A DNA stretch of 64,000 nt from the sequence record OQ349392.1; one strand, written 5' to 3'. Positions 1 to 19,508 of this stretch are shown piece after piece. A program made the position numbers and the translations under genes. Position 1 is the stretch's first letter, and every line of letters starts with the position of its first letter. Source of the DNA: Escherichia phage KIT06. The notes beneath the pieces were generated by a model. It did not search any database, was not told where the DNA came from, and was given only the letters and a program-made list of their open reading frames with translations.

Positions 1-347
1 CTCAAGAGTGTGAACAAGAAGCAGTTGATATTTTCATGGAAGTTAACCGCCAAGAAAAAGATTGGGCAGTTCATTTATTTAAAGATGGCGATGTTCCTGG
101 ATTAAATACAAATAGCATGTGGAGCTTTATTGATTACTTAACTGTATCTCGTATGAAACAGTGCGGTCTTCCATGCCCAATTACTGATGCTCCGGTTAAA
201 CATCCGTATCCTTGGATTCGTGAATACCTTAATTCTGATAATGTTCAATCCGCGCCGCAAGAAGTAGAACTGTCATCTTACCTTGTAGCACAGATTGATA
301 ATGATGTTGATGATAAAGTTATGATGAGTTTTAAAAAATATTTTTAA
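1..347 (+). CDS. nrdB: Probable ribonucleotide reductase small subunit (NrdB), C-terminal fragment; 5' end lies outside the window
   Basis: Frame is open from window start to stop at 345-347; position immediately upstream of denA matches T4 order nrdB-denA-rnlA. Identity is by synteny only. Confidence 0.5.
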   Translation, partial: QECEQEAVDIFMEVNRQEKDWAVHLFKDGDVPGLNTNSMWSFIDYLTVSRMKQCGLPCPITDAPVKHPYPWIREYLNSDNVQSAPQEVELSSYLVAQIDNDVDDKVMMSFKKYF

Positions 348-351
348 GGAG

Positions 352-374
352 TGGGCCGCAAGGCCCATTTTATT
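352..374 (+). terminator. Hairpin (TGGGCC-GCAA-GGCCCA) plus T-run between nrdB and denA
   Basis: 6-bp GC stem with GNRA tetraloop followed by TTTTATT. Confidence 0.5.
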
Positions 375-1962
<1,588 letters not shown>

Positions 1963-1965
1963 GCT

Positions 1966-2019
1966 GTTTACAAGTCCCTCGTGTTGTGTTACAGTAGTCT
2001 TACTGACATAACATGAGGA
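1966..2019 (+). repeat. 54-bp perfect direct repeat, copy 1 (rnlA-alc intergenic); GTTTAC...CATGAGGA cassette
   Basis: gtttacaagtccctcgtgttgtgttacagtagtcttactgacataacatgagga, identical to 17061-17114; flanks differ on both sides. Confidence 0.85.
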
Positions 2020-2026
2020 CTTTATG

Positions 2027-2530
2027 ATGGATTTACAGCTTATTACTACTGAAATGGTCGTTGAAGCATACGGTGATACTACAGATGGGATTTCTGTATT
2101 TAAAGGAAATCGTCGAGTTGGATATATCACCGATCTTAAGAAAGATTTAGCTAAGCAAGTCAAGCGGAAAACGACTATTAAAGAATATCGAAATCGTCGC
2201 CTTGAGCAAGCCCGTGATATGCTTCCTGATGCGGTTGAGGAGATGAAAGTCTTTTTAGAAAATCAGCTTGCGAAATATGATTGTGATGTGTTCATTAATC
2301 AGACTCAACCTAATGTTCATATTAATAGCTGTAAATGCTACATCATCGTTAATCCTTTGACGGGAAAACATCGTCTTGGAATTAGTAATCCAAATCGTAG
2401 TGCATCAGATATGGCAGAAGATGTTGAGGCATGCTTTAAAATTTCTAAATCTCCGGCTGAACATCATATTTTAATTAACGGTCTTTCTCAAGACGATATT
2501 GTAGAGGTTATTAAAACTTTATGCATGTAA
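2027..2530 (+). CDS. alc: Alc (host transcription shutoff protein), 167 aa
   Basis: ORF 2024..2530 starts ATGATG; second ATG gives MDLQLITTEMVV as remembered for T4 Alc; lies directly downstream of rnlA as in T4. Confidence 0.8.
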   Translation: MDLQLITTEMVVEAYGDTTDGISVFKGNRRVGYITDLKKDLAKQVKRKTTIKEYRNRRLEQARDMLPDAVEEMKVFLENQLAKYDCDVFINQTQPNVHINSCKCYIIVNPLTGKHRLGISNPNRSASDMAEDVEACFKISKSPAEHHILINGLSQDDIVEVIKTLCM

Positions 2531-2874
2531 GTAATTTTACAGCTGGATTGCTATTACTTGTAATAGCATTTGGTGGAACATCTATTATTTTAAAAAATAA
2601 GGTAGAAAGATTAGAAACATCGGTTACTGAAATTACAAAAACGGCCAATGAAAACGCTTTAGCATTAGATAATTTGCGAATTCAGTATAATTATATTGAT
2701 GCGATGAATAATAAAAATCGTGAGGCAATTGCTGCTATTGAGCGTGAAAATGAAAAACTGCGCAAAGATGCAAAGAAGGCGGATGTGGTGGCTCATAAGC
2801 CAGGATTGGTTGAAAAACAAATCAACAACTCCTTCAACAAGTTCGCAGAAGACATCCAGGACCTTTCTAAATGA
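2521..2874 (+). CDS. Hypothetical membrane protein (pseT.3 position), 117 aa
   Basis: ORF track; ATG start overlapping alc stop; N-terminal hydrophobic helix FTAGLLLLVIAFGGTSIIL. Confidence 0.6.
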   Translation: MHVSNFTAGLLLLVIAFGGTSIILKNKVERLETSVTEITKTANENALALDNLRIQYNYIDAMNNKNREAIAAIERENEKLRKDAKKADVVAHKPGLVEKQINNSFNKFAEDIQDLSK

Positions 2875-3170
2875 TTAAACTATCGGCAGTAATATTATCT
2901 ATTGGTCTTCTAGTTGGTTGTTCGACAAAGCCTCTAGAAGTAAAGAAAGAAACAGTTCATCCTAATTGGCCTGTGCAAATAAAGTCATATGATGAAGCTA
3001 AACTATCTTGGCAAGTTAAAGTTATTGATGGTAAAGCTTGGGTCGGTATGCCATTTGAAGATTCCCAGGAATTTCGTATTTGGCTTAATGATGTAAAACG
3101 ATATGTACATGACCAAAAAACTATGATATGTTATTATCGTCAAGAGCTAAAAGAGGATAAATGTAAATGA
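2871..3170 (+). CDS. Hypothetical lipoprotein-like protein (pseT.2 position), 99 aa
   Basis: ORF track; signal peptide with lipobox-like LLVGCS; ATGA overlap with upstream stop. Confidence 0.6.
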   Translation: MIKLSAVILSIGLLVGCSTKPLEVKKETVHPNWPVQIKSYDEAKLSWQVKVIDGKAWVGMPFEDSQEFRIWLNDVKRYVHDQKTMICYYRQELKEDKCK

Positions 3171-3343
3171 TTTCATGGCATCAATTTGAACATCTCAAAG
3201 GATTGATTTATGAATCCGAGATGGCTGCAATGATTTATGGACGCCAGATTCAACGATTAGAATCTTTGCCTCCAACTAATGATGTTTTATTAGCTCAATC
3301 ACGCGCTAATCTTAAAAATGAATACCAAAATAAGTGGGGGTAA
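3167..3343 (+). CDS. Small hypothetical protein, 58 aa (below ORF-track cutoff)
   Basis: ATG at 3167 overlaps the TGA stop of the upstream ORF (ATGA coupling); open to TAA at 3341-3343; fills an otherwise empty gap in a tightly packed early operon. Confidence 0.4.
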   Translation: MISWHQFEHLKGLIYESEMAAMIYGRQIQRLESLPPTNDVLLAQSRANLKNEYQNKWG

Positions 3344-3394
3344 AGCATCTAAAGACCTGCATGATTATATTCAATCATTGGTTGAGAAAAATAA

Positions 3395-4602
<1,208 letters not shown>

Positions 4603-4666
4603 TGGCTTGGCACCATGAAACTTTGTCTATTATTGATTGGCTTGAAGAAAATTATGTGAGGTAAAT

Positions 4667-4942
4667 ATGTTTCCGACTTACTCTAAAATCGTAGAAGTAG
4701 TGTTTAGTCAAATTATCGCTAATAACATGTTTGAAAAGCTTGATAATGCAGCTGAGCTTCGAATCCACGCTCAAGTGACTCATGTATTGAACGCTTTGCT
4801 TCCAGACCAAGTGGATTCTATTGCAATTACGCTGTATCCAGGTTCCGCGCATATCATTGTCGTATTTGGTCTTGATGCTGAGCTAGTCATCAAAGGCGAT
4901 ATTCGTTTTGAATCGCAGACATCAGAATTCAAAGCAATTTAA
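4667..4942 (+). CDS. Hypothetical protein, 91 aa
   Basis: ORF track; position in pseT-cd interval. Confidence 0.55.
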   Translation: MFPTYSKIVEVVFSQIIANNMFEKLDNAAELRIHAQVTHVLNALLPDQVDSIAITLYPGSAHIIVVFGLDAELVIKGDIRFESQTSEFKAI

Positions 4943-4944
4943 TA

Positions 4945-4975
4945 GTTTACTTTACGGTAGAGTTGTGATATTATA
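4945..4975 (+). promoter_or_regulatory. Early-type promoter candidate (GTTTAC -35, about 18 bp spacer, TATTAT -10) with embedded 7-bp stem-loop
   Basis: gtttac...ggtagag-ttgtgatattatag-ctctacc; upstream of ORF 5004. Confidence 0.45.
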
Positions 4976-5003
4976 GCTCTACCAAACAAATGAGGAAATT
5001 GAA

Positions 5004-5240
5004 ATGCTAAGTGAAAAACCAATTACTGTTAAAGAATTCCAAGAAAAAGTTAAACTATTTGCTCAGGAATTGGTAAATAAAGTTTCTGAACGATTTCCTG
5101 AAACATCGGTTCGTGTTATTACCGAAACTCCTCGTTCAGTATTAGTAATTGTGAATCCAGGTGATGGTGACCAAATAACACATCTCAAATTGGATTTTGA
5201 TGGATTAGTTGAAGCACAAAGGGTGTATGGCGTACTATGA
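5004..5240 (+). CDS. Hypothetical protein, 78 aa
   Basis: ORF track; ATG preceded by GAGGAA SD and an early-promoter-like element. Confidence 0.6.
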   Translation: MLSEKPITVKEFQEKVKLFAQELVNKVSERFPETSVRVITETPRSVLVIVNPGDGDQITHLKLDFDGLVEAQRVYGVL

Positions 5241-5575
5241 TGAATTTAACTGATATAATTGATAATTGTCTTGAAAATGATACTGGCGATCATAGAGCGC
5301 TTGACTCTGAAACAGCACAGTTCATTAGAATAACTTTAATGAATGATACTCTAGTGAATAGTATTCATCCTTCTGTGTATGATGCTATTATTGTGACGAA
5401 GTATCCAGTTGAGCTTCACAAAAAGATGGCTGGTGCAATTTTTATTGATAAGAAAAACCGCTTTAAAGATGGGCAGAATATAATTAGTTCTGTTATTAAA
5501 AGTATAACTAAACTTCGTCACGAAATTTATCGTGTTGAAACCGCTAAATCTGCTTATCTGGTGATTATGAAATGA
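5237..5575 (+). CDS. Hypothetical protein, 112 aa
   Basis: ORF track; start overlaps upstream stop (translational coupling). Confidence 0.6.
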   Translation: MMNLTDIIDNCLENDTGDHRALDSETAQFIRITLMNDTLVNSIHPSVYDAIIVTKYPVELHKKMAGAIFIDKKNRFKDGQNIISSVIKSITKLRHEIYRVETAKSAYLVIMK

Positions 5576-6153
5576 AAGCGAGTACAGTACTTCAAATTGC
5601 ATATTTAGTATCACAAGAATCCAAATGTTGCTCCTGGAAGGTAGGAGCAGTAATTGAAAAGAATGGACGTATTATTTCTACTGGATATAACGGTTCTCCG
5701 GCAGGTGGTGTGAATTGCTGTGATTATGCTGCCGAGCAAGGTTGGTTGTTGAATAAACCTAAACATACTATCATTCAAGGTCATAAGCCCGAATGTGTAT
5801 CATTTAGTTCAACTGAACGTTTTGTCTTAGCGAAAGAACACCGTAGTGCTCACTCTGAATGGTCGTCTAAAAATGAAATTCACGCTGAACTAAATGCAAT
5901 TTTGTTTGCTGCACGAAATGGTTCTTCAATTGAAGGCGCTACTATGTATGTAACACTTTCTCCTTGCCCAGATTGTGCAAAAGCAATAGCTCAATCTGGA
6001 ATTAAAAAGTTGGTTTATTGTGAAACGTACGATAAAAATAAACCTGGCTGGGATGATATTCTGCGAAATGCGGGTATTGAAGTGTTTAATGTTCCTAAGA
6101 AAAACTTGAATAAGTTAAACTGGGAAAATATCAACGAATTCTGCGGTGAATAA
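5572..6153 (+). CDS. cd: dCMP deaminase, 193 aa
   Basis: Zinc-binding cytidine/dCMP deaminase motifs HAELNAI and PCPDCAKAI; length and position as in T4. Confidence 0.9.
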   Translation: MKASTVLQIAYLVSQESKCCSWKVGAVIEKNGRIISTGYNGSPAGGVNCCDYAAEQGWLLNKPKHTIIQGHKPECVSFSSTERFVLAKEHRSAHSEWSSKNEIHAELNAILFAARNGSSIEGATMYVTLSPCPDCAKAIAQSGIKKLVYCETYDKNKPGWDDILRNAGIEVFNVPKKNLNKLNWENINEFCGE

Positions 6154-6389
6154 TGAAATTTCGTTTGGTACAACTCACAGCAATTAGTTCTTATTCTAAT
6201 GAGAACATTTCATTTGCTGTAGAGTATAAGAAGCATTTTTTCTCTAAATGGAAGCAGTATTATAAGTCAAACTGGGTTTGTATTGATAATCCACATAGTT
6301 GGAAATCTGATTTAGAAAAATGCCAAAAATTGCTTTCCACTCTTAAAGAACGTGGAACAACTCATATTAAAACTGTGATAGGTAAATAA
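6153..6389 (+). CDS. Hypothetical protein (31.2 position), 78 aa
   Basis: ORF track; coupled to cd stop. Confidence 0.6.
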   Translation: MKFRLVQLTAISSYSNENISFAVEYKKHFFSKWKQYYKSNWVCIDNPHSWKSDLEKCQKLLSTLKERGTTHIKTVIGK

Positions 6390-6698
6390 ATGAAACTGAC
6401 GACTGAACAGAAAGTAGCAATTCGTGAAATTTTGAAAACTAAATTGTCCATGGGTATTTCAAACGTAGTTTTTGAAAAGTCTGATGGTACTATTCGTACT
6501 ATGAAAGGCACTCGTGATGCAGACTTTATGCCAACCATGCAAACCGGTAAATTGACTGAATCGACTCGGAAAGAATCTACTGATATGATTCCAGTATTTG
6601 ATGTTGAGCTTGGTGCATGGCGAGGTTTTTCTATTGACAAATTGATTTCCGTTAATGGTATGAAAGTTGAGCATTTGCTTCAATTTATTGGTAAATAA
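6390..6698 (+). CDS. Hypothetical protein (31.1 position), 102 aa
   Basis: ORF track. Confidence 0.6.
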   Translation: MKLTTEQKVAIREILKTKLSMGISNVVFEKSDGTIRTMKGTRDADFMPTMQTGKLTESTRKESTDMIPVFDVELGAWRGFSIDKLISVNGMKVEHLLQFIGK

Positions 6699-6725
6699 AT
6701 GCTTTAAGAATTATTTGTTATTATT
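6697..6725 (+). promoter_or_regulatory. Middle promoter candidate for gene 31: MotA box TGCTTTA plus TATTAT -10
   Basis: aaaTGCTTtA at 6697-6706, TATTAT at 6719-6724 (about 12 bp between). Confidence 0.5.
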
Positions 6726-6754
6726 AATTCATCTGTTAACAAAAAGGAAAAACG

Positions 6755-7090
6755 ATGTCTGAAGTACAACAGCTACCAATTCGTGCTGTCGGTGAATATG
6801 TTATTTTAGTTTCTGAACCTGCACAAGCCGGTGATGAAGAAGTCACAGAATCAGGACTCATTATCGGTAAACGTGTTCAAGGTGAAGTTCCTGAACTGTG
6901 TGTAGTTCACTCTGTTGGTCCTGATGTTCCTGAAGGTTTCTGCGAAGTTGGTGATTTGACTTCTCTTCCAGTTGGTCAAATTCGAAACGTTCCGCATCCT
7001 TTTGTAGCTCTGGGTCTTAAGCAGCCAAAAGAAATTAAACAAAAATTCGTTACCTGTCACTATAAAGCTATTCCGTGTCTTTATAAGTGA
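6755..7090 (+). CDS. 31: Co-chaperonin gp31 (GroES analogue for capsid protein folding), 111 aa
   Basis: Sequence [22 protein letters not shown]... matches remembered T4 gp31; preceded by a MotA-box middle promoter. Confidence 0.9.
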
Positions 7091-7098
7091 TATAAATA
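7091..7098 (+). promoter_or_regulatory. TATAAATA late-promoter motif between gene 31 and rIII
   Basis: Exact TATAAATA right after gene 31 stop; lies 140 nt upstream of the rIII ATG, so its function is uncertain. Confidence 0.3.
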
Positions 7099-7237
7099 AT
7101 AATATGAATTGGGTGTCGGAATAATAAGTTAACCGAACAATTCTATGTGGTAGTCTACAACTGAGAGATCTGTCGAAAGAAGATGAAATTCAGAAGAACG
7201 TGACTACCGAGTTTTAATCTCTAACGAGAATTTTTAA

Positions 7238-7486
7238 ATGATTAAACAATTACAACACGCTCTTGAACTGCAACGAAACGCATGGAATAATGGTCACGAA
7301 AACTATGGCGCATCTATTGATGTTGAAGCCGAAGCTCTTGAAATCCTGCGTTATTTCAAACATCTGAATCCTGCTCAAACTGCATTAGCTGCTGAGCTCC
7401 AGGAAAAAGATGAACTTAAGTATGCTAAGCCTCTGGCTTCTGCTGCACGAAAAGCAGTTCGTCACTTTGTGGTAACACTGAAGTAA
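7238..7486 (+). CDS. rIII: rIII lysis inhibition accessory protein, 82 aa
   Basis: 82-aa ORF MIKQLQHALELQRNAWNNGHENYG matches remembered T4 RIII; position after gene 31. Confidence 0.85.
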   Translation: MIKQLQHALELQRNAWNNGHENYGASIDVEAEALEILRYFKHLNPAQTALAAELQEKDELKYAKPLASAARKAVRHFVVTLK

Positions 7487-7883
7487 TTTATTGGAGATTC
7501 ACTGCCTTAGTGTGAGCTAAAATCGAGGAGCCGTCGAACTGTCTGATTAATGATTTGCGAATCATTATAGTTTTAAGACCCCGGCAGTTTTACGGTGTAC
7601 CTCTTGAATGTTATTCTTATAGCGGCAAGTGCATGCTACCCCGAGGTGATGGCTAATCGGGAGTACGCCTCAAGGCCTATATATCCATCAGTATATATCT
7701 TATCCTCGAGAAATCGAACCCGGAACCTTTAAGCTAACGGTGTGCAACAGATAAGAGCTATAAGGTATGATGACGGGTTTATGGTTATCCTGTCGGTAAA
7801 TATTCAAAACCTAAGTACCCCTTTGAGGGCTTTCGCAGGCAATGCCAATAAGTCCTGCATTTTCATTTAAAAGAGAATTTATA

Positions 7884-8060
7884 ATGGCAAAACAAGCTAA
7901 AGCAAAGAAAGCAGTTGAAAAGAAAGTTGGTGATTCTAAACGCGCTGGCTACAAGCGTGGGTCGAACTCTCGTATCAATCAAACTGTTGAGAAGATCATG
8001 CGCCGAGCACGTGCGGTTCTTCGAGATGATGCTTCTCGTTTTGGTAAGCAGAAAGCATAA
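7884..8060 (+). CDS. Small lysine/arginine-rich hypothetical protein, 58 aa (30.9 position)
   Basis: ORF track 7842..8060; ATG at 7884 (MAKQAKAKKAVEKK...) preferred; followed immediately by a strong hairpin-plus-T-run terminator. Confidence 0.5.
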   Translation: MAKQAKAKKAVEKKVGDSKRAGYKRGSNSRINQTVEKIMRRARAVLRDDASRFGKQKA

Positions 8061-8064
8061 GTTG

Positions 8065-8094
8065 AGGACTCCTTCGGGAGTCCTTTTTTATTTT
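8065..8094 (+). terminator. Intrinsic terminator: 8-bp stem AGGACTCC-TTCG-GGAGTCCT plus TTTTTTATTTT
   Basis: Perfect stem, UUCG tetraloop, long T-run immediately after the 58-aa ORF stop. Confidence 0.65.
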
Positions 8095-8113
8095 CCAAAG
8101 ATTGCACAAAGTT

Positions 8114-8143
8114 GTTTACAGTATAGTTCCTTTGTGATAGTAT
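8114..8143 (+). promoter_or_regulatory. Early-type promoter candidate (GTTTAC ... TAGTAT) within a CACAAAG/CTTTGTG stem-loop
   Basis: gtttac at 8114-8119, -10-like tagtat about 18 bp downstream; upstream of ORF 8171. Confidence 0.45.
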
Positions 8144-8170
8144 TATCTTACACAAACAAAGGAGAATAAA

Positions 8171-8503
8171 ATGAAAACGATTAATCTGAACGCTACAGTT
8201 AAAACTAAATGCTTCAATGGTAAATATGATGAAACTATGTGGTTCTTAATGGCAGTTGAAGGTGATATTATTGAAGTAGAAACAACAGAAGGTATGGGAA
8301 CAGATTTCACCTTTACAATTCAAGTTCATAATTTCTTTACTGGTTGGATTTATGAATTGAATACAGTAATCGTTGGAAAAATTGAACAAAATGAATTGGG
8401 TGAATGGTATTATGTTACAGCTCGCCAGCGTGCCGAACGCTTAATTGAGAAGATGAAAAAAGTTGGTAAACTTGACATGCAGCACTGGAAAGTAGTAAAA
8501 TAA
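8171..8503 (+). CDS. Hypothetical protein, 110 aa
   Basis: ORF track; GGAGAATAAAATG ribosome-binding context; early-promoter-like element upstream. Confidence 0.65.
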   Translation: MKTINLNATVKTKCFNGKYDETMWFLMAVEGDIIEVETTEGMGTDFTFTIQVHNFFTGWIYELNTVIVGKIEQNELGEWYYVTARQRAERLIEKMKKVGKLDMQHWKVVK

Positions 8504-8505
8504 TT

Positions 8506-8535
8506 GTTTACTTTGGTACAGGATATGATATTATA
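8506..8535 (+). promoter_or_regulatory. Early-type promoter candidate (GTTTAC ... TATTAT) with GGTACAGG/CCTGTACC stem-loop
   Basis: gtttac at 8506-8511, tattat about 17 bp downstream inside hairpin loop; upstream of ORF 8572. Confidence 0.45.
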
Positions 8536-8571
8536 TACCTGTACCGCAATTAAACATCTCGGAGAATAAAA

Positions 8572-8937
8572 ATGAACTACATCAACTTTGAACGTAAATA
8601 TGTTTCTAATGGTATTGCAGGTTCTATTGATACTATCTGCCTTTGGAAACATCAAAATGGATCAGTATGCGAAATTGAACAGTATATGACTCCTAACTAC
8701 GTTTATATGCGATTTGAAAATGGCATCACGGTTTCAATCACGAAAGAAGGTTCTTCTTTTAAAATCGCATTAGATGATGATTTCCGTCAACGTGATTTAG
8801 GTACCCATCCTTGCTGGAACGGCGTTAATCGTAAGCTTCTGGTTAAAACTTGGATTCGTCATATTCTGAGTAACAGAGCTAAACCTGAGCATCTTGAAGC
8901 GATCTTTGATGTAGTTCTTAACGAATTTGATATTTAA
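8572..8937 (+). CDS. Hypothetical protein, 121 aa
   Basis: ORF track; same GGAGAATAAAAATG context as previous gene. Confidence 0.65.
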   Translation: MNYINFERKYVSNGIAGSIDTICLWKHQNGSVCEIEQYMTPNYVYMRFENGITVSITKEGSSFKIALDDDFRQRDLGTHPCWNGVNRKLLVKTWIRHILSNRAKPEHLEAIFDVVLNEFDI

Positions 8938-8977
8938 AATAAAACAGGGGCTTCGGCCCCTTACTGAGGAAAATACT

Positions 8978-9265
8978 ATGTTTATGACTACTTATTTTGA
9001 TACCCGTAAAAACTTCTGTGAAGTAGTTTTCTCTAAGGCGCCTAAAGACCTTCCTGCTCATTTGCAACCTACCAGTGAATCAATTAAAAACTACGTTAAT
9101 GTAGTCTGCCCTTTAGAGTTTCGTACTGTAAATGGGCGTGATACTCTAGCTATCACTAAACTTAATCGTGAAATTGACATTGACCCTTCAATTGCGCGTG
9201 AAATTAACATTTCTGATATTGGCGGCGGTAATGTTAAATCGCATGGTTTTCAGATGAGGTTCTAA
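8978..9265 (+). CDS. Hypothetical protein, 95 aa
   Basis: ORF track 8927..9265 starts at TTG inside a hairpin; trimmed to ATG at 8978 preceded by GAGGA. Confidence 0.6.
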   Translation: MFMTTYFDTRKNFCEVVFSKAPKDLPAHLQPTSESIKNYVNVVCPLEFRTVNGRDTLAITKLNREIDIDPSIAREINISDIGGGNVKSHGFQMRF

Positions 9266-9462
9266 TGAAATTCTTTTTAGGTCAAACTGTTGAATTAAAG
9301 GGAGTTGGTATACCTGGATTAATTTCTAAGGTTCTATCTCCATTTAAATGGAGTGGTATTCAAATAAAAGAGGCTTATATTGTTTCCTGGGTAGATGGAA
9401 ATGAAGACCTTCGTATGGGCGATGAATTATCTCCTATCTATGGATTAAAGGAATTAGTATGA
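9265..9462 (+). CDS. Hypothetical protein, 65 aa
   Basis: ORF track; TAATG overlap with upstream gene. Confidence 0.55.
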   Translation: MKFFLGQTVELKGVGIPGLISKVLSPFKWSGIQIKEAYIVSWVDGNEDLRMGDELSPIYGLKELV

Positions 9463-9665
9463 ATATAATTAATAAGATTTTTGGAATTCAGTACATTAAG
9501 GTCACATATAAAGTAACGTATAAAGGTCCGTATACCGATGAACATGAAGAGCCGCAAGTTAAGTCTATTATATTAGAAAAGGACCCTAACTGGCCAATTG
9601 AATTTCGTCTTCCTTGCTATGGTCATTGGGCTGATGTTGAAATTATAAGTATTGAAAATGTCTGA
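9459..9665 (+). CDS. Hypothetical protein, 68 aa
   Basis: ORF track; ATGA overlap with upstream gene. Confidence 0.55.
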   Translation: MNIINKIFGIQYIKVTYKVTYKGPYTDEHEEPQVKSIILEKDPNWPIEFRLPCYGHWADVEIISIENV

Positions 9666-10116
9666 GTTAGAGATTAGAAGCAATTTTAGATGGCCATCAT
9701 GTGCATTAAGTAATTTCGCCCAATGGCCTTTTGTTATGGATGGTATCCAATTTGGAGGTCTCGAAGGATTCCTCCAAGGATGCAAGGTGAAAAATGTTGA
9801 ACAACAGCGTCGTATATTTGGGTTATCCGGGCTTGCCGCCCAACAAGCTGGAAGGTCTTATGCAAGAGCTCAGGACCATGGCACGTTGTTCTGGCTTGGA
9901 ACTCCGTTTTCAAGATATTCCGAAGCATGGAAAGAATTATACACAAATGCATATTTTGAAGCCGCGATCCAAAACAAGGGGTTTCGTGATGCCTTACAAG
10001 CCTCTAAAGGAAAAATTTTGAAGCACAGCATGGCTAGCGGTCTAACAAAAGATGATACAATACTAACCGAAGCTGAATTTATTGATGTGTTAAACCTATT
10101 AAGAGACTCTCTATGA
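9658..10116 (+). CDS. NADAR/YbiA-like (DUF1768-type) protein, 152 aa (30.3 position)
   Basis: ORF track 9652..10116 starts at TTG; ATG at 9658. Segment ALSNFAQWPFVMDGIQFGGLEGFLQGCK resembles the remembered YbiA/NADAR core (SNFxxWP...DG...F...E..FQ..K). Family assignment is from memory of the motif only. Confidence 0.6.
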   Translation: MSELEIRSNFRWPSCALSNFAQWPFVMDGIQFGGLEGFLQGCKVKNVEQQRRIFGLSGLAAQQAGRSYARAQDHGTLFWLGTPFSRYSEAWKELYTNAYFEAAIQNKGFRDALQASKGKILKHSMASGLTKDDTILTEAEFIDVLNLLRDSL

Positions 10117-10943
10117 AGCCAACTATTTTGACTGATATTGATGGAGTATGTTTAAGCTGGCAATCAGGCCTTCCTTATTTTGCTCAGAAATATAATCTTC
10201 CGTTAGAACATATTTTAAAAATGATCCAAGATGAGAAATTTATTTCTCCAGGTAAACTCTTTAATTGTGACGAAGAACTTGGCGTCAAGTTAATTGAAAA
10301 ATACAATCGTTCAGATTTTATTCGTTACTTGTCTCCGTATAAAGATGCCCTGTGTGTAATTAACAAATTAAAAGAAGATTATAATTTTGTAGCTGTTACA
10401 GCATTGGGTGATTCTATTGACGCTCTGTTGAATCGTCAATTTAATTTGAATGCTCTTTTTCCTGGTGCTTTCTCGGAAGTAATGATGTGTGGTCATGATT
10501 CTTCAAAAGAAGAGCTGTTCAAAAAGGCAAAAGAGAAATATAACGTAATTTGTTATATTGACGATCTCGCTCATCACTGCGATCATGCGAGTGAAATATT
10601 AAATGTTCCTGTTTATTGGATGGCTCGAGGGGAGCGTGATAATATTCCAAAAACTGCTCAGCGAGTTTATACATGGAATGATGTAGAAAATAAGCTTTTT
10701 TCGCCGAAGGAAAATAAAGAAAGTTTTGATAGTGAAAAAGCTATAAAAGATTTAATTGAGAAGATGGTTAAAAACGATTCTTTTCCTTGGAACACTACCT
10801 GGAGAACGCCTGGATTAAATCCTTATAATCATCCATATCAGACACATCCGTTTCAGACATGGAACTATATTAAACCTGGTGGCATAGAGTATTTGTATAA
10901 TAGACCTACTAGTGGTGATAATATTTTTCAAGGAGCATTCTAA
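10113..10943 (+). CDS. HAD-superfamily-like hydrolase, possible nucleotidase, 276 aa (30.2 position)
   Basis: N-terminal ILTDIDGV (HAD motif I DxDGx), later VAVTA and YIDDLAHH consistent with HAD motifs II and IV. Confidence 0.65.
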   Translation: MKPTILTDIDGVCLSWQSGLPYFAQKYNLPLEHILKMIQDEKFISPGKLFNCDEELGVKLIEKYNRSDFIRYLSPYKDALCVINKLKEDYNFVAVTALGDSIDALLNRQFNLNALFPGAFSEVMMCGHDSSKEELFKKAKEKYNVICYIDDLAHHCDHASEILNVPVYWMARGERDNIPKTAQRVYTWNDVENKLFSPKENKESFDSEKAIKDLIEKMVKNDSFPWNTTWRTPGLNPYNHPYQTHPFQTWNYIKPGGIEYLYNRPTSGDNIFQGAF

Positions 10944-11209
10944 TGTTTGTTGTTCATACTATTTATGAAAATGAAGGTAATACTACACGTGATTACGGTC
11001 ACGTAAATCAATTTTTTAGATGCAATCCAGAATTCCGTGCTCAAAAAGACGAACGAATTTTTAAAAAATGTGTAGAACAAGGTTTCATTTACGTCAAGCA
11101 CTGGATGCAAGGAAATAAAGTTAGAACTACATATCATAAGTCTTTGCCTGAGCTTAATGATGAATTGATTTATAATAGAGCTGTAAACCAAACCTTGAAG
11201 GATGAATAA
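10943..11209 (+). CDS. Hypothetical protein, 88 aa (30.1 position)
   Basis: ORF track; AAGGAG SD; stop overlaps ligase start. Confidence 0.6.
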   Translation: MFVVHTIYENEGNTTRDYGHVNQFFRCNPEFRAQKDERIFKKCVEQGFIYVKHWMQGNKVRTTYHKSLPELNDELIYNRAVNQTLKDE

Positions 11210-12669
11210 TGATTCTTAAAATTCTGAATGAAATAGCATCTATTGGTTCAACTAAGCAGAAGCAAGCAATTCTTGAAAAGAATAAAGATAATGAATTGCT
11301 TAAACGAGTATATCGTCTGACTTATTCTCGTGGGTTACAGTATTATATCAAGAAATGGCCTAAACCTGGTATTGCTACCCAGAGTTTTGGAATGCTGACT
11401 ATTACCGATATGCTTGACTTCATTGAATTCACGTTAGCTACTCGGAAATTAACTGGCAATGCAGCAATTGAGGAATTAACTGGATATATCACCGATGGTA
11501 AAAAGGATGATGTTGAAGTTTTGCGTCGAGTTATGATGCGAGACCTTGAATGCGGTGCTTCAGTATCTATTGCAAACAAAGTTTGGCCAGGTTTAATTCC
11601 TGAACAACCTCAAATGCTGGCAAGTTCTTATGATGAAAAAGGCATTAGTAAGAATATCAAGTTTCCAGCTTTTGCGCAGTTAAAAGCAGATGGAGCTCGG
11701 TGTTTTGCTGAAGTCCGAGGTGATGAATTAGATGATGTTCGTCTTTTATCACGAGCTGGCAATGAATACCTAGGATTAGATCTTCTTAAGGAAGAGTTAA
11801 TCAAAATGACTGCTGAAGCCCGCCAGATTCATCCAGAAGGTGTGTTAATTGATGGCGAATTGGTATACCATGAGCAAGTTGAAAAGGAACCAGAAGGCCT
11901 AGATTTTCTTTTTGATGCTCCTGAAATCAGTAAAGCTAAAGAATTCGCCGAAGTAGCTGAATCACGTACTGCTTCTAATGGAATCGCCAATAAATCTTTA
12001 AAGGGAACTATTTCAGAAAAAGAAGCCAAATGTATGAAGTTTCAGGTCTGGGATTATGTTCCGTTGGTAGAAATATACGGTCTTCCGGCGTTTCGTTTAA
12101 AATATGATGTACGTTTTTCTAAACTAGAACAAATGACATCAGGATATGATAAAGTAATTTTAATTGAAAACCAAGTAGTAAATAACCTAGATGAAGCTAA
12201 GGTAATTTATAAAAAATATATTGACCAAGGTCTTGAAGGTATTATTCTCAAAAATACCGATGGATTGTGGGAAAATGCTCGTTCAAAAAATCTCTATAAA
12301 TTTAAAGAAGTAATTGATGTTGATTTAAAAATTGTAGGAATTTATCCTCACCGTAAAGACCCTACTAAAGCAGGTGGATTTATTCTTGAGTCAGAGTGTG
12401 GAAAAATTAAAGTAAATGCTGGTTCAGGCTTAAAAGATAAAGCCGGTGTAAAATCACATGAACTTGACCGTACTCGCATTATGGAAAACCAAAATTATTA
12501 TATTGGAAAAATTCTAGAGTGCGAATGCAACGGTTGGCTAAAATCTGATGGCCGCACTGATTACGTAAAATTATTTCTTCCAATTGCGATTCGTTTGCGT
12601 GAAGATAAAACAAAAGCTAATACATTCGAGGATGTATTTGGTGATTTTCATGAGGTAACTGGTCTATGA
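11209..12669 (+). CDS. 30: ATP-dependent DNA ligase, 486 aa
   Basis: Adenylation motif KADGAR; MILKILNEIASIGSTKQKQAILEKNKDNELL matches remembered T4 gp30. Confidence 0.95.
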   Translation: MILKILNEIASIGSTKQKQAILEKNKDNELLKRVYRLTYSRGLQYYIKKWPKPGIATQSFGMLTITDMLDFIEFTLATRKLTGNAAIEELTGYITDGKKDDVEVLRRVMMRDLECGASVSIANKVWPGLIPEQPQMLASSYDEKGISKNIKFPAFAQLKADGARCFAEVRGDELDDVRLLSRAGNEYLGLDLLKEELIKMTAEARQIHPEGVLIDGELVYHEQVEKEPEGLDFLFDAPEISKAKEFAEVAESRTASNGIANKSLKGTISEKEAKCMKFQVWDYVPLVEIYGLPAFRLKYDVRFSKLEQMTSGYDKVILIENQVVNNLDEAKVIYKKYIDQGLEGIILKNTDGLWENARSKNLYKFKEVIDVDLKIVGIYPHRKDPTKAGGFILESECGKIKVNAGSGLKDKAGVKSHELDRTRIMENQNYYIGKILECECNGWLKSDGRTDYVKLFLPIAIRLREDKTKANTFEDVFGDFHEVTGL

Positions 12670-12854
12670 AAGCTTACTTAGAAACAATTGTCATTGCTCA
12701 AAAAGAAGGTGGAGATGTTTCTACTTCTGTATCACAAGTCATTCTCGAATTTGTAGATGCATATGCTTATAATAAATTTACAGAAACATTTGATGCCTAC
12801 GAAAAAGGTCCAAAGTTTGAAATATATCGTACTCTCTTACCATTAGATTATTAA
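12666..12854 (+). CDS. Hypothetical protein, 62 aa
   Basis: ORF track; coupled to ligase stop; followed by hairpin terminator. Confidence 0.55.
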   Translation: MKAYLETIVIAQKEGGDVSTSVSQVILEFVDAYAYNKFTETFDAYEKGPKFEIYRTLLPLDY

Positions 12855-12855
12855 A

Positions 12856-12871
12856 GGCCTTCGGGCCTTTA
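12856..12871 (+). terminator. Hairpin AAGGCC-TTCG-GGCCTT after the gene 30 operon
   Basis: 6-bp stem, UUCG loop, followed by TTTAATTTTA. Confidence 0.5.
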
Positions 12872-12875
12872 ATTT

Positions 12876-12883
12876 TATAAATA
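12876..12883 (+). promoter_or_regulatory. Late promoter TATAAATA for alt
   Basis: Exact TATAAATA about 20 nt upstream of the alt ATG; Alt is a late, head-packaged protein in T4. Confidence 0.6.
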
Positions 12884-12903
12884 GAATAAACACTAGAGAG
12901 GAT

Positions 12904-15000
12904 ATGATGGAACTCATTACAGAATTATTTGACGAAGATACTACTCTTCCGATTACAAACTTAAATCCAAAGAAGAAAATACCGCAAATTTTTTCAGTTC
13001 ATGTTGATGACGCAATTGAACAACCAGGCTTTCGTTTATGTACCTATACATCTGGAGGTGATACTAACCGTGATCTAAAGATGGGCGATAAAATGATGCA
13101 CATTGTTCCTTTTACATTAACTGCTAAAGGTTCAATTGCTAAATTGAAAGGTCTCGGTCCAAGCCCAATTAATTACATCAATTCAGTTTTTACTGTTGCG
13201 ATGCAAACGATGCGTCAGTATAAAATTGATGCCTGCATGCTTCGTATTCTTAAGTCTAAAACTGCCGGTCAAGCTCGACAAATTCAAGTTATTGCTGATA
13301 GACTTATCCGTAGTCGTTCGGGTGGCAGATACGTCCTTCTTAAGGAACTCTGGGATTACGATAAAAAGTACGCATATATTCTTATACATCGCAAAAATGT
13401 ATCACTAGAAGACATTCCAGGAGTTCCGGAAATTAGTACCGAGCTCTTTACTAAAGTTGAATCGAAAGTCGGCGATGTTTATATCAATAAAGATACTGGA
13501 GCTCAAGTAACTAAAAATGAGGCAATTGCTGCATCTATTGCGCAAGAAAATGATAAGCGTTCTGACCAAGCTGTAATCGTTAAAGTTAAAATTTCCCGTA
13601 GAGCAATTGCGCAAAGTCAGTCATTGGAATCTTCTAGATTTGAAAGCGAATTATTCCAGAAATATGAATCTACCGCAGCTAATTTCAATAAACCCGCTAC
13701 AGCTCCTTTAATTCCCGAAGCAGAAGAAATGAAGCTTGGAATTAATTCATTAGCTTCTAAAACTAAGGCAGCAAAAATTATTGCTGAAGGAACTGCAGAT
13801 GAACTTCACTATGACTATAAATTCTTTTCAAAAAGTGAGGTTAATGAAGTTTCTGAAAAAATTAAAGACGTAATTCTTAATGCGATTAAAAATGAACCAA
13901 CTACTTCAATAAAATGTTTAGAGAAGTATGCAGCAGCTATTAATAAATTCTTTGAAGAATATAAAGATACTTGGCTTGATAAACATAATAAAACCCGTAA
14001 AGGACAGCCAGATGAAGTCTGGGAAGAAATAACTAAAAATTCCTGGAACGCAGCAAAAACTAAATTCCTCAAACGAATGATTTATAGCTTTTCTGGAATT
14101 GGTGCAGGTCCAATGATTGATATTACTATTGCCCGTGATGGTTCTAAATATACTCCATCACAAAAGCGCGGCATTAGAGAATATTGTGGTTCAGGATATA
14201 CTGACATCAATAATCTTCTTTTAGGACGCTACAATCCAGAACGATATGATGTAATGAGTGAAAAAGAAATTGAATCTGCGATAAATAATTTAGATTCAGC
14301 CTTTGAAAATGGTGACCGTATACCAGAAGGCATTACAGTTTATCGTGCTCAAAGTATGACTGCTCCTATATACGAAGCGCTAGTTAAAAATAAAGTGTTC
14401 TATTTCAGAAATTTTGTATCTACTTCTTTAACTCCTATCATTTTTGGACGTTTTGGAATTACACATGCTGGTATCGGTCTTTTAGAACCAGAAGCTCGTA
14501 ATGAATTAACAGTTGATAAAAATGAAGAAGGAATAACTATTAATCCGAACGAAATAAGAGCGTATAAAGAAAATCCTGAATACGTTAAAGTTCAAATAGG
14601 ATGGGCAATTGATGGAGCTCATAAAGTTAATGTTGTATATCCAGGGAGTCTCGGAATAGCAACAGAAGCTGAAGTAATTCTACCACGCGGATTGATGGTC
14701 AAAGTTAATAAAATAACTGATGCTTCTAATAATGACGGAACAACATCTAATAACACAAAACTCATTCAAGCTGAAGTTATGACTACGGAAGAACTCACCG
14801 AATCAGTAATTTATGACGGTGACCGTCTAATGGAAACTGGTGAAGTAGTTGCAATGACAGATGATATTGAAATAGAAGACAGAGTTGACTTTGCATCATT
14901 TGTTTCATCAAATGTTAAACAGAAAGCAGAATCATCTCTCGGAATTATTGCGTCTTGCATAGATATTACAAACATGCCTTACAAGTTCGTTCAAGGATAA
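12904..15000 (+). CDS. alt: Alt-family mono-ADP-ribosyltransferase (head-packaged), 698 aa
   Basis: N-terminus MELITELFD (LxE-type prohead-protease site); R-S-E ADP-ribosyltransferase triad context (YRAQS, FVSTSLTP, ATEAEVILPRG); late promoter TATAAATA about 25 bp upstream. May start at the second ATG (12907). Confidence 0.85.
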   Translation: MMELITELFDEDTTLPITNLNPKKKIPQIFSVHVDDAIEQPGFRLCTYTSGGDTNRDLKMGDKMMHIVPFTLTAKGSIAKLKGLGPSPINYINSVFTVAMQTMRQYKIDACMLRILKSKTAGQARQIQVIADRLIRSRSGGRYVLLKELWDYDKKYAYILIHRKNVSLEDIPGVPEISTELFTKVESKVGDVYINKDTGAQVTKNEAIAASIAQENDKRSDQAVIVKVKISRRAIAQSQSLESSRFESELFQKYESTAANFNKPATAPLIPEAEEMKLGINSLASKTKAAKIIAEGTADELHYDYKFFSKSEVNEVSEKIKDVILNAIKNEPTTSIKCLEKYAAAINKFFEEYKDTWLDKHNKTRKGQPDEVWEEITKNSWNAAKTKFLKRMIYSFSGIGAGPMIDITIARDGSKYTPSQKRGIREYCGSGYTDINNLLLGRYNPERYDVMSEKEIESAINNLDSAFENGDRIPEGITVYRAQSMTAPIYEALVKNKVFYFRNFVSTSLTPIIFGRFGITHAGIGLLEPEARNELTVDKNEEGITINPNEIRAYKENPEYVKVQIGWAIDGAHKVNVVYPGSLGIATEAEVILPRGLMVKVNKITDASNNDGTTSNNTKLIQAEVMTTEELTESVIYDGDRLMETGEVVAMTDDIEIEDRVDFASFVSSNVKQKAESSLGIIASCIDITNMPYKFVQG

Positions 15001-15003
15001 ATC

Positions 15004-17061
15004 ATGGAACTTATTACAGAATTATTTGACGGCGCTTCGGCGCCGGTTGTTAACTTAAATCCTAAGCATAAAATACCTCAAATTTTTGCTATTCAAGCCG
15101 GCGAAGAAAGTGTGCTTCCTGGATTTAGATTTTGTACATACACCTCTGGCGGTGATACAAATAAAAACGTTAAGCCAGGCGATAAAATGATGCATATCGT
15201 AATGATAGGTGTTAATGAGAAACTATCATTAGTTAAACTTAAAAACTTGGGTGGAAATCCAATTGGTGTCATTAATGCAGTTTTTGATACTGCTCTTCAA
15301 ACAATGAAACAGTATAAAATTGACGCATGCTTATTCCGCGTACTAAAGAGTAAAACAAATGGCGCTGCTCGTCAAATGCAAGTTATTGCCGACCGTTTAG
15401 TACGTACTAAAGGAGCAGGTCGATATGTTCTTTTAAAGGAAATCTGGGACTATGATAAGAAATATGCATATATTATGGTTTACCGTAAAAATGCCAATTT
15501 AGAAGACATTCCAGGTGTACCTCCTATTTCAACTGAGTTATTCACAAAAGTTGAATCAAAGGTTGGTGATGTTTATGTAGATGTTAAAACAGGTAATGCT
15601 GTTCCTAAAGCTGTTGCTGTTGCTGCTTCTATTGCTTTAGAAAATGATAAGCGTACGGATCAAGCTGTTATTCAGAAAACTAAAATTAGCCGTCGATTAG
15701 CAGCTCAGGCTCAATATTCTACTGTCGATGCTTCACTTCAGGGTGATAGCTTCGCTGCTAAGAAATATCAAGAGTTTGAATCTAAAGTTCCGGTATATAA
15801 AGCAGAAGGACCAATGAACTCTGGCGTTATTCAGGTTGGTTCAAACTTCAGTAAAGGAGCTATCGGTGGTATGAGAAGTGCTTCTCGTTTTAAATCTAGT
15901 GATTATGAACTAGAAAGCTTCAGAAATCATATTGCATTGGCTCATGCACGTTTACGTGATCCATCTATCAAGTTACAGAGCGATATAACATATCAAGGTT
16001 CTCAGGAATATTTAAAGAATAAAGAATTTTTTGATTATAAAACTGATAAAATTTTAAGCGATCTCGCTGACATTAATATTTCTAATAGCTTTGATGTTAT
16101 TAAGAAAATTATCAATGATTTAGTTAAAGGTTCTAAAGCCACGCCAGATGAAAAGGTAGCTATTGTTCAATTTGTCATGAATGGCATTTATAAATTGATT
16201 AATGAGTCTGCTTCTCAAGCGTATGAATATGCAAGTACTGAAGTACCCCCAAAAGGATTAACTCGGGCTGAGTCTGATGTAATTGAAGATTATTGCGCAG
16301 ATTCATATGTTGAAATGAACTCGTTCCTTTTAGGTAAACCAGATTCTACTCGTGAAGAATACATGGAACGAGCTATTAAACACATCGAGACAATGGATTC
16401 TGCCTTTGCCAAAGGATCAGTTCTTCCTCCAGGAACTACGCTTTATCGTGGACAAGAAGTTACTTTTAAAACTTTACGCCATAATATTGAAAATAAAATG
16501 TTCTATTTCAAGAACTTCGTATCAACATCGCTTAAACCAAATATCTTCGGTGAGTATGGTAAAAACTATATGGCCCTAGATGATTCTGGTGCAGTATTTT
16601 CTGGTGAAGGAGAAGGTTCAGTTGATGCTGAAGATTTAATGCATATGGGCAGTCACTCTGCTTACGCGAATGAAGATGCTGAAACTAGCGTGGGTATGGT
16701 AATTAAAGGGGCTGAGCGAATCAAAGTTATCGTTCCAGGTCATTTATCAGGATTTCCATCAGAAGCTGAAGTTATTCTACCGCGCGGAATTTTACTGAAG
16801 ATTAATAAAGTAAGTACGTACTTTATGAAAGAAACTGCTTATAACAAGTATCTAATAGAAGGTACAATCGTTCCTCCTTCTGAACAATTAGAGGAATCGG
16901 TATATGATGGCGAGCATCTAATGGAAACTGGCGAAGTTCGTCCAATGGCTGGATTTAATCAATTCCTTGTAGAAGAATCAAAAGAAGAGGAAAACGAAGT
17001 TTCTCAAATCTTGGCTTCTTTGGTTAACATCAACGGAATGTCTAAAAAGTTCAAAATGTAG
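15004..17061 (+). CDS. Second Alt-family ADP-ribosyltransferase paralog, 685 aa
   Basis: Same N-terminal MELITELFD, conserved first ~230 aa, diverged middle, conserved ART motifs (YRGQE, FVSTSLKP, PSEAEVILPRG) and C-terminal ESVYDGEHLMETGEV; starts 3 nt after the first alt stop. Confidence 0.85.
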   Translation: MELITELFDGASAPVVNLNPKHKIPQIFAIQAGEESVLPGFRFCTYTSGGDTNKNVKPGDKMMHIVMIGVNEKLSLVKLKNLGGNPIGVINAVFDTALQTMKQYKIDACLFRVLKSKTNGAARQMQVIADRLVRTKGAGRYVLLKEIWDYDKKYAYIMVYRKNANLEDIPGVPPISTELFTKVESKVGDVYVDVKTGNAVPKAVAVAASIALENDKRTDQAVIQKTKISRRLAAQAQYSTVDASLQGDSFAAKKYQEFESKVPVYKAEGPMNSGVIQVGSNFSKGAIGGMRSASRFKSSDYELESFRNHIALAHARLRDPSIKLQSDITYQGSQEYLKNKEFFDYKTDKILSDLADINISNSFDVIKKIINDLVKGSKATPDEKVAIVQFVMNGIYKLINESASQAYEYASTEVPPKGLTRAESDVIEDYCADSYVEMNSFLLGKPDSTREEYMERAIKHIETMDSAFAKGSVLPPGTTLYRGQEVTFKTLRHNIENKMFYFKNFVSTSLKPNIFGEYGKNYMALDDSGAVFSGEGEGSVDAEDLMHMGSHSAYANEDAETSVGMVIKGAERIKVIVPGHLSGFPSEAEVILPRGILLKINKVSTYFMKETAYNKYLIEGTIVPPSEQLEESVYDGEHLMETGEVRPMAGFNQFLVEESKEEENEVSQILASLVNINGMSKKFKM

Positions 17062-17114
17062 TTTACAAGTCCCTCGTGTTGTGTTACAGTAGTCTTACTG
17101 ACATAACATGAGGA
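17061..17114 (+). repeat. 54-bp perfect direct repeat, copy 2 (after alt paralog, before 96-aa ORF)
   Basis: Identical to 1966-2019; first base is the last base of the upstream TAG stop; ends in GAGGA 7 nt before the ATG at 17122. Confidence 0.85.
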
Positions 17115-17121
17115 ACACAAA

Positions 17122-17412
17122 ATGAAATCTTCTTTACGCTTTTTAGGTCAAGAACTTGTAGTTGAAGGCGTTATTCCTGCTGATAATGCTTTTAATGAAG
17201 CAGTTTACGATGAATTTATTAAAATTTTTGGAACAGATAAAAAGTTCGGAATTTTTCCTTCTGAAAATTTTTCAAAGCCAGAACAGACTGAAAGCATTTT
17301 CCAAGGTGTAGTAACAGGCAAATTTGAGTCAGAAGCTCCGGTAAAAATTGAAGTTTATATTGAAGACAGTTTAGTTGCTTCAGTTGCTGCTTTTATTTCA
17401 TTCCGTAAATAA
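17122..17412 (+). CDS. Hypothetical protein, 96 aa
   Basis: ORF track; preceded by the 54-bp repeat cassette providing GAGGA SD. Confidence 0.6.
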   Translation: MKSSLRFLGQELVVEGVIPADNAFNEAVYDEFIKIFGTDKKFGIFPSENFSKPEQTESIFQGVVTGKFESEAPVKIEVYIEDSLVASVAAFISFRK

Positions 17413-17418
17413 AAACAT

Positions 17419-17436
17419 GGGGACCGAAAGGTCCCC
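17419..17436. terminator. Bidirectional hairpin GGGGACC-GAAA-GGTCCCC between convergent 96-aa ORF and gene 54
   Basis: 7-bp GC stem with GAAA tetraloop between two convergent stops. Confidence 0.55.
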
Positions 17437-17440
17437 GTTG

Positions 17441-19500: not shown

Positions 19501-19508
19501 ATTATTCC

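Follow-up and report, generated by a model that had tools for sequence, protein, structure and literature searches.

A repeated 54-bp early promoter cassette before alc and alt.-3 of a T4-like phage, with a hairpin predicted to hide the ribosome-binding site in read-through RNA

The window, that is, the whole stretch of 64,000 nt of Escherichia phage KIT06 that was analyzed, is Tequatrovirus (T4-like phage) DNA with the plus strand as the early-gene strand. The 54-nt sequence GTTTACAAGTCCCTCGTGTTGTGTTACAGTAGTCTTACTGACATAACATGAGGA occurs on this strand at positions 1966-2019 (copy A) and at 17061-17114 (copy B). Exact matching over the whole window found these two copies and no others, and no third copy appeared in the window with up to three mismatches; the number expected by chance was none, and a match was produced by 0 of 100 shuffled sequences. 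Copy A is situated between rnlA (838-1962) and the gene that it serves, alc, the inhibitor of host transcription (2024-2530, plus strand), identified by the Pfam family PF17527 ALC (E = 1e-92) and by the annotations of relatives. Copy B is situated between the second of two alt paralogs (15004-17061) and the homologue of T4 alt.-3 (17122-17412, plus strand), a 96-aa ORF of the Pfam family DUF5498, which is the gene served by this copy. The flanks are unlike on both sides, and the shared block runs from the G of GTTTAC to the point where the Shine-Dalgarno (SD) motif GAGGA ends. Upstream, copy A begins 3 nt past the rnlA stop codon (1960-1962), and copy B overlaps the alt-paralog stop TAG (17059-17061) by 1 nt, its first G being also the third base of that codon. 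Downstream, the GAGGA of alc (2015-2019, plus strand) is separated by 4 nt from the ATG at 2024 and by 7 nt from the one at 2027; in copy B, 7 nt lie between the GAGGA (17110-17114) and the ATG at 17122. A first-pass annotation made from the letters of the window had claimed the identity of the two copies, their unlike flanks, the closeness to the upstream stop codon and the distance of 4-7 nt to the next ATG; the positions above bear all of this out, and the gene names given there (rnlA and alc, with a second alt paralog and the 96-aa ORF) agree with the annotated relatives.

The alc gene opens with ATGATGG. The T4 annotation uses the second ATG (2027), and the Pfam ALC match starts at residue 2; taken to that ATG, the spacing between the SD and the start is 7 nt, equal to that of alt.-3. 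The two alt (ADP-ribosyltransferase) paralogs are full-length genes in tandem (12904-17061) coding for 698 and 685 aa, with ~71-80% identity over the repeated DNA stretches. T4 retains the second paralog only as the remnants alt.-1 and alt.-2, and the T4 alt.-2 ORF terminates at the TAG within the -10 hexamer (TATAGT) of the cassette. Elsewhere in the window, we observed that a 127-nt segment is duplicated perfectly in tandem (53531-53657 and 53658-53784) in the minus-strand gene of the baseplate wedge initiator, the homologue of T4 gene 7. The unit length, 127, does not divide by 3, and the gene falls into two overlapping ORFs, 52729-53808 and 53636-55954. The unit is single in the eight related records listed among the 498 matching ones, where a 501-nt query maps to 374 nt. 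Either the assembly is at fault here, or an essential gene carries a genuine duplication that shifts its frame.

That each 54-bp copy contains a T4 early sigma-70 promoter is well supported. In copy A (1967-1995, plus strand), the -35 hexamer TTTACA (1967-1972) is followed by a 17-nt spacer with a TG at 1987-1988 and by the -10 hexamer TACAGT (1990-1995). The corresponding positions in copy B (17062-17090, plus strand) are 17062-17067, 17082-17083 and 17085-17090, and in the numbering of the element 2-7, 22-23 and 25-30; both a consensus scan and a separate scan gave this assignment. The generic sigma-70 scan, uninformative overall with 73 sites found and 71 expected, served only to confirm the hexamers. 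The first-pass annotation had proposed GTTTAC as the -35-like hexamer of the early-type promoters in the window; it is the -35 motif of T4 early promoters, and a more fitting reading of the promoter is TTTACA-N17-TACAGT with a TG that extends the -10. In comparison with canonical T4 early promoters, the cassette has the GTTTAC, the spacing of 17 nt, a stretch rich in G and T ahead of the -10, the TGn and the CTTAC; it differs in its -10, TACAGT being a weaker variant than TATAGT in T4 or TATAAT in copy B of T2, and in its A-rich UP region, which is weak at copy A and lies outside the repeat. The T4 early consensus sets GTTTAC at -36 to -31 (PMC1524935), and the predicted start is therefore element position 37, the A of CTTAC (A2002 in copy A, A17097 in copy B). 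The same start-region motif recurs at the same place in most related genera, with TCTAC, CATAC or ATTAC in some. The exact position of the start should be read as a prediction from this consensus: in the literature searched, we found neither mapped T4 5' ends nor a published early promoter before alc or alt.-3, and promoter features are absent at these sites from the GenBank records of T4. Predicted features are annotated, independently, in two relatives, an early promoter at the spot of copy A in fPS-65 and an early promoter with an overlapping predicted terminator at copy B in ASO78A.

The spacer of the promoter together with the -10 (element 12-31) is complementary to the leader together with the SD (element 36-53). 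The predicted hairpin pairs positions 12-24 with 41-53 and 27-31 with 36-40, which makes 13 + 5 bp, or 15 contiguous pairs counting G-U. At copy A it spans 1977-2018 (plus strand), with the 5' arm at 1977-1996 carrying the anti-SD CCUC and the -10, the loop at 1997-2000 and the 3' arm at 2001-2018 carrying the SD GAGG; at copy B (17072-17113, plus strand) the arms are 17072-17091 and 17096-17113. The folding energy is -23.3 kcal/mol (z = -4.56 versus shuffles), and the SD is fully paired, GAGG with CCUC. Both the hairpin and this pairing had been suggested in the first-pass annotation, and the computed helix is stronger than was estimated there. A further point, absent from that annotation, comes from the geometry of the element: the promoter is predicted to start transcription inside the hairpin, so that its own RNA would lack the 5' arm. 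The RNA from element position 37 folds at only -3.2 kcal/mol and is essentially unstructured. Since the predicted start is past the 5' arm, only RNA that reads through from upstream would be able to hide the ribosome site.

We expressed this difference as the cost of opening the SD; the pairing probability of the SD was ambiguous at site B, where a weak alternative hairpin is predicted to pair the SD in the short promoter-started RNA, and the opening energy was used instead. For copy A, the cost was 7.9 kcal/mol in read-through RNA versus 1.6 in RNA starting at 2002; for copy B, it was 11.3 kcal/mol versus 1.7 in the promoter's own RNA. Among the 17 SD-bearing ORF starts on the plus strand of the first 17.4 kb of the window, the three highest costs belonged to copies A and B and a third, non-identical cassette of like layout at 8114-8173, and all other sites were at or below 4.2 kcal/mol. 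This third cassette (plus strand) has GTTTAC, an anti-SD arm, TGnTAGTAT and the SD AGGAG, and precedes a 110-aa ORF (8171-8503), which is probably 30.8. Its hairpin pairs UUCCUUUGUG with CACAAACAAAGGAG at -12.1 kcal/mol, with four of the four SD positions paired, and opening of the SD costs 7.9 kcal/mol in read-through RNA compared to 0.2 in the promoter's own RNA.

The window has two more GTTTAC promoters, at 4945-5006 and 8506-8574, where hairpins of -16 and -19 kcal/mol enclose the -10 and leave the SD free. These are classic cases like the promoter-early stem-loop (PeSL) cassettes described in T4-like phages (Arbiol et al. 2010, PMC2839356; Comeau et al. 2014, PMC4122927). At the homologue of 4945-5006, the annotation of ASO78A has a promoter overlapping a terminator. 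Just before the third cassette, the segment 8016-8099 gave a sub-threshold Rfam match to the Rhizobiales sRNA Atu_C8 (31 bits versus a gathering score of 50, E = 0.007); it overlaps a terminator-like hairpin at 8064-8085 and is most likely a chance match.

Two other roles for the hairpin were considered and rejected. An intrinsic terminator should be followed by a T-run, and none comes after the stem, where the tails are CTTTATGA in copy A and ACACAAAA in copy B; the element is also absent from the 13 terminator-like sites of a scan that does flag the true terminator at 17417-17438. An RNA-processing site for RegB, which the first-pass annotation had listed for testing, did not hold up, as the SD AUGAGGA contains neither GGAG nor GGAU. 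In several other genera GGAG does occur in the corresponding 3' arm. RegB cleavage is inhibited by secondary structure (PMC3014915).

The conservation of the layout was assessed in the rnlA-alc spacer of ten other Tevenvirinae genera. The same arrangement was found before alc in Moonvirus, Karamvirus, Jiaodavirus, Winklervirus, Dhakavirus, Gelderlandvirus and Kanagawavirus CIP9 (eight sequences): GTTTACA, directly after it the anti-SD arm, TGnTAnnAT in the loop, and a 3' arm that ends on the SD. The 3' flank of the stem is A-rich in the other genera, with no T-run. The stem sequences themselves vary between genera, for example AUCUCCGUUUAGUU/AACUAAACGGAGAU and UCCUCAUUUCGUUG/UAACGAAAUGAGGA. 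With lengths of 9-14 bp, the helices are equalled by at most 3 of 2000 arm shuffles in five of the eight sequences; the results were weaker for Karamvirus CC31 (46/2000) and Dhakavirus Bp7 (85/2000), and the helix of Karamvirus AS6 is given by folding alone. Across all genera the arms are shifted by 1-4 nt and there is no single register; therefore, columns were counted in the seven sequences that share one, and the register-free helix test was used for the rest. In the structure-blind MAFFT alignment of these seven sequences, 96.7% of the cells were paired, compared to 35-55% when the partner was slid. Four pairs had changed on both sides, and pair 17-45 was seen as GC, AU, CG and UA; the covariation score was reached by none of 500 shuffles. 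We also observed that the stems hold G-U pairs, and C-to-U and G-to-A changes, that keep the pairing only on the plus (mRNA) strand, which argues for an RNA structure rather than a structure of the DNA.

The pattern has exceptions. In Mosigvirus, Tegunavirus and Kanagawavirus KLB31, the alc site combines a promoter with a hairpin that does not take in the SD, so alc does not strictly require sequestration of its SD. In Gaprivervirus VR7, another ORF intervenes between rnlA and alc, and the hairpin is GGGG...CCCC. The anti-SD/SD layout at alc is thus widespread and not universal, with the hairpin kept by compensatory change in eight genera. In Karamvirus CC31, more GTTTACA cassettes akin to its alc cassette stand before small ORFs (9804-9868 and 10093-10157), and one of them partly retains the anti-SD/SD pairing. 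The same design may be found at more early genes in other genera.

Published T4 RNA-seq data taken 5 min after infection (PMC6024815, Table S1), with counts converted here to reads per kb, cover both sites. In the DdksA host infected with motAam phage, the density was 6.9k at denA and 3.9k at rnlA, and it rose to 25.6k at alc, with 17.6k at pseT.3. For the wild-type host and phage, the values at rnlA, alc and pseT.3 were 21.2k, 12.9k and 10.0k. At the second site, the wild-type density went from 4.6k at alt.-1 and 9.6k at alt.-2 to 15.6k at alt.-3, and in the DdksA host with motAam phage from 5.5k and 10.5k to 32.1k. The read density of alt.-3 was thus higher by a factor of 1.6-3 than at alt.-2, and by a factor of 3.4-6 than at alt.-1. 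With motAam phage compared to wild-type phage, alc was up 1.61-fold and alt.-3 up 2.38-fold, and rnlA was down to 0.68-fold (PMC6024815). The rise of alc and alt.-3 resembles that of early-promoter genes such as goF and motB. The jumps at alc and alt.-3, which are jumps of read density and not mapped 5' ends, fit a MotA-independent start in each spacer.

The explanation that we favor, with moderate confidence, is that the cassette acts as an early promoter combined with a translational insulator, so that alc and alt.-3 would be translated from the RNA of their own promoter. Read-through RNA coming from rnlA or from the alt paralog carries both arms; it would fold at about -23 kcal/mol, bury the GAGGA, and give poor translation of alc or alt.-3. 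The promoter-started RNA would begin past the 5' arm, have no hairpin, and offer an open ribosome-binding site. Alc and Alt.-3 would then be made mainly from their own immediate-early transcripts and be insulated from middle and late read-through. Translational repression was among the roles suggested in the first-pass annotation; the cross-genus compensatory changes and the opening energies make it the best reading for the read-through RNA, and it is from these that we infer the block itself.

The hairpin could instead act mainly on the upstream rnlA or alt mRNA, as an attenuator, a terminator or a 3'-end stabilizer, with the SD falling into the stem incidentally to the tight spacing. Such a role was proposed for the PeSL stem-loops, and in RB49/phi1 a PeSL stem-loop cut downstream lacZ as much as the rrnB T1 terminator did (PMC2839356). 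The terminator call at copy B in ASO78A comes from WebGeSTer, and the density in wild-type T4 drops by ~40% from rnlA to alc, a fall that fits an extra attenuator or 3'-end role of the hairpin. The hairpins of the GTTTAC promoters at 4945 and 8506, which enclose the -10 and do not touch the SD, point the same way. However, neither the two copies nor the other genera have the T-run, and the terminator scan passes over the element. Moreover, in eight genera the stem has the anti-SD in its 5' arm and closes with the SD at the end of its 3' arm, which a terminator would not need. We therefore consider it unlikely that the effect on the upstream transcript is the main one; an attenuator role can, besides, coexist with the promoter-plus-insulator explanation.

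The history of the element was followed in other T4-like genomes, a search for the 54-mer having been suggested at the outset as a check. Blastn with short words found 997 copies in 499 Tequatrovirus records, essentially two per record, at the same two sites and with 92-100% identity; a megablast count of 150 records fell short through its seeding, as the common T27 allele has no 28-mer in exact agreement. T4 has both copies, with one difference from the window between rnlA and alc (TATAGT for TACAGT) and two differences between alt.-2 and alt.-3. The first-pass annotation had offered recent copying as one explanation of the perfect identity. For the duplication this does not stand: two copies are present in essentially all of the 499 records, T4 included, so the duplication is old and has been kept by selection. 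What is left of the claim concerns the rarer allele C27, shared by the two copies in the window, which hints at a recent local conversion from A to B. C27 was present in at least one copy of all 114 records with the exact 54-mer. It is common at site A and, among the matches listed, most instances are at the rnlA-alc position; at copy B it was seen in this window and in few other records, and the window's copy B with its flanks has a 100% match in only one other record. Within a genome, copies A and B differ at 0, 0, 0, 1, 1, 2, 3, 5 and 6 positions in the nine genomes where both could be read. As the alleles suggest, the perfect identity in the window is most likely due to a recent local A-to-B conversion or to parallel change.

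Some alleles look specific to one site, C27 at site A and, recurrently, G29A and G32A at site B; the 3' arm (element 41-54) is invariant in all of the sampled Tequatrovirus copies. The variation of the stem within the genus is too small for a test of pairing (no better than shuffles; three of nine stem substitutions break a pair). Scans of collections added seven IMG/VR and eight metagenome stretches, which are too few for statistics on concerted evolution.

Before the alt.-3 homologue, the Jiaodavirus JD18 and the Karamvirus CC31 have a GTTTAC promoter with a small, different hairpin and a free SD; among the three genera examined at this site, the alc-type cassette is thus found at alt.-3 only in Tequatrovirus. 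The free SD and the different hairpin in JD18 and CC31 indicate that the anti-SD/SD layout is ancestral at alc. The homology between copies A and B stops at the -35 and at the SD, motifs common to all such modules, and these ends may be a trace of conversion between PeSL-type modules, by analogy with the model of PMC2839356 and PMC4122927. An alc-type cassette would have replaced the resident early promoter before alt.-3 in the ancestor of Tequatrovirus, via conversion of homologous promoter/RBS modules, and a later A-to-B conversion in the lineage of this window would have made the copies equal again.

It could be argued from this history that the element matters only as DNA, a repeated promoter module serving as a patch of homology for recombination, with a hairpin that has no regulatory role. 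PeSLs do mediate exchanges and the formation of mini-circles (PMC2839356, PMC4122927), and besides the exact limits of homology and the apparent copying to alt.-3 only in Tequatrovirus, the region beside copy B is plastic, with a full second alt paralog here versus the alt.-1/alt.-2 remnants in T4. But recombination between the direct repeats would delete 15 kb including ligase (30), 31, cd and pseT; the compensatory changes and the G-U pairs valid on the mRNA strand only point to selection on an RNA helix; and a homology patch alone would not keep the anti-SD/SD helix in eight genera with a single copy. This makes the reading improbable.

Very improbable, finally, is a hairpin that serves as an RNase III or RNase E site or as an operator for a phage RNA-binding protein co-regulating alc and alt.-3 in trans: it would explain why one leader of the same sequence is kept at two unrelated genes, with a helix of ~18 bp and an invariant 3' arm in the sampled Tequatrovirus copies, but an Rfam scan of positions 1-20000 gave no family match at either copy at E ≤ 1, only the pairing and not the loop or stem sequence is conserved between genera, the SD GAGGA is without the RegB motif GGAG, and the sampled Jiaodavirus and Karamvirus genomes have no cassette common to both genes.

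The promoter-plus-insulator explanation is best placed by comparison with two known kinds of elements. With the PeSL cassettes, the 54-mer shares a sigma-70-type early promoter, TTTACA-N17-TACAGT fitting the PST/T4 PeSL consensus TTTACW-N17-TAYWAT at 11 of 12 positions, a stable stem-loop that overlaps the -35/-10 spacer and the -10, and an SD with a start codon at the 3' end. It also shares the intergenic placement, tight against the rnlA stop in the case of copy A, and the repetition within a genome, with possible signs of exchange between the copies in the allele C27 and in the cassette at alt.-3. The differences concern the hairpin and the surroundings. In the 54-mer the ribosome-binding site doubles as the 3' arm, and transcription is predicted to start within the hairpin; in the PeSL papers, the roles given to the stem-loop are those of terminator or attenuator and of a site for recombination, and no gating of translation is ascribed to it; the stem-loops of the PST type are described just upstream of the promoter; and the sites of the 54-mer flank conserved genes, compared to ORFan clusters for PeSLs.

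The second kind is represented by the T4 genes e, soc, 49 and I-TevI, where SD-sequestering hairpins are relieved by a promoter inside the hairpin, with a 100-fold effect for e (PMC3014915); the cases covered in that review include none of alc, alt.-3 and 30.8. In both, a helix of the read-through RNA covers the SD or the AUG (the SD, by prediction, in the 54-mer), the promoter is in the DNA of the 5' arm and its own RNA is without that arm (for the 54-mer, a prediction from geometry), and the structure is kept in related phages. However, the promoter of e, soc, 49 and I-TevI is the gp55 late promoter TATAAATA, a motif absent from the 54-bp element, and their translation is confined to late times. 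The promoter of the 54-mer is of the sigma-70 early type and the predicted effect is reversed: with an early internal promoter, translation is predicted to be confined to immediate-early transcripts. By these likenesses, we would place the 54-mer with the PeSL cassettes, with a mode of action like that of the T4 promoter-in-hairpin switches but built on an early promoter, the translational block being the predicted part.

A wider and more tentative proposal, in which our confidence is a little short of even, is that such promoter-licensed translation is a conserved design of the early region of Tevenvirinae, present at alc in at least eight genera and at alt.-3 and 30.8 in Tequatrovirus, in which the promoter spacer doubles as the anti-SD, and conversion, made possible by ends that are the common -35 and SD motifs, can bring the cassette from one gene to another. 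Every component is of a known kind, and no new field is opened. On the practical side, a self-contained 54-bp part with a promoter, an insulator and an RBS could be of use in phage engineering. If the proposal is true, the cassette is mobile and moves the timing of transcription and of translation as one unit, an early-phase mirror of the late switch of e, soc and 49, and the PeSL stem-loops gain a translational role so far unassigned to them. The genes immediately upstream of alc and alt.-3 continue to be transcribed later, and the cassette would explain how Alc, a potent host-shutoff protein, and Alt.-3, a conserved protein of unknown function, are tied to the first minutes of infection.
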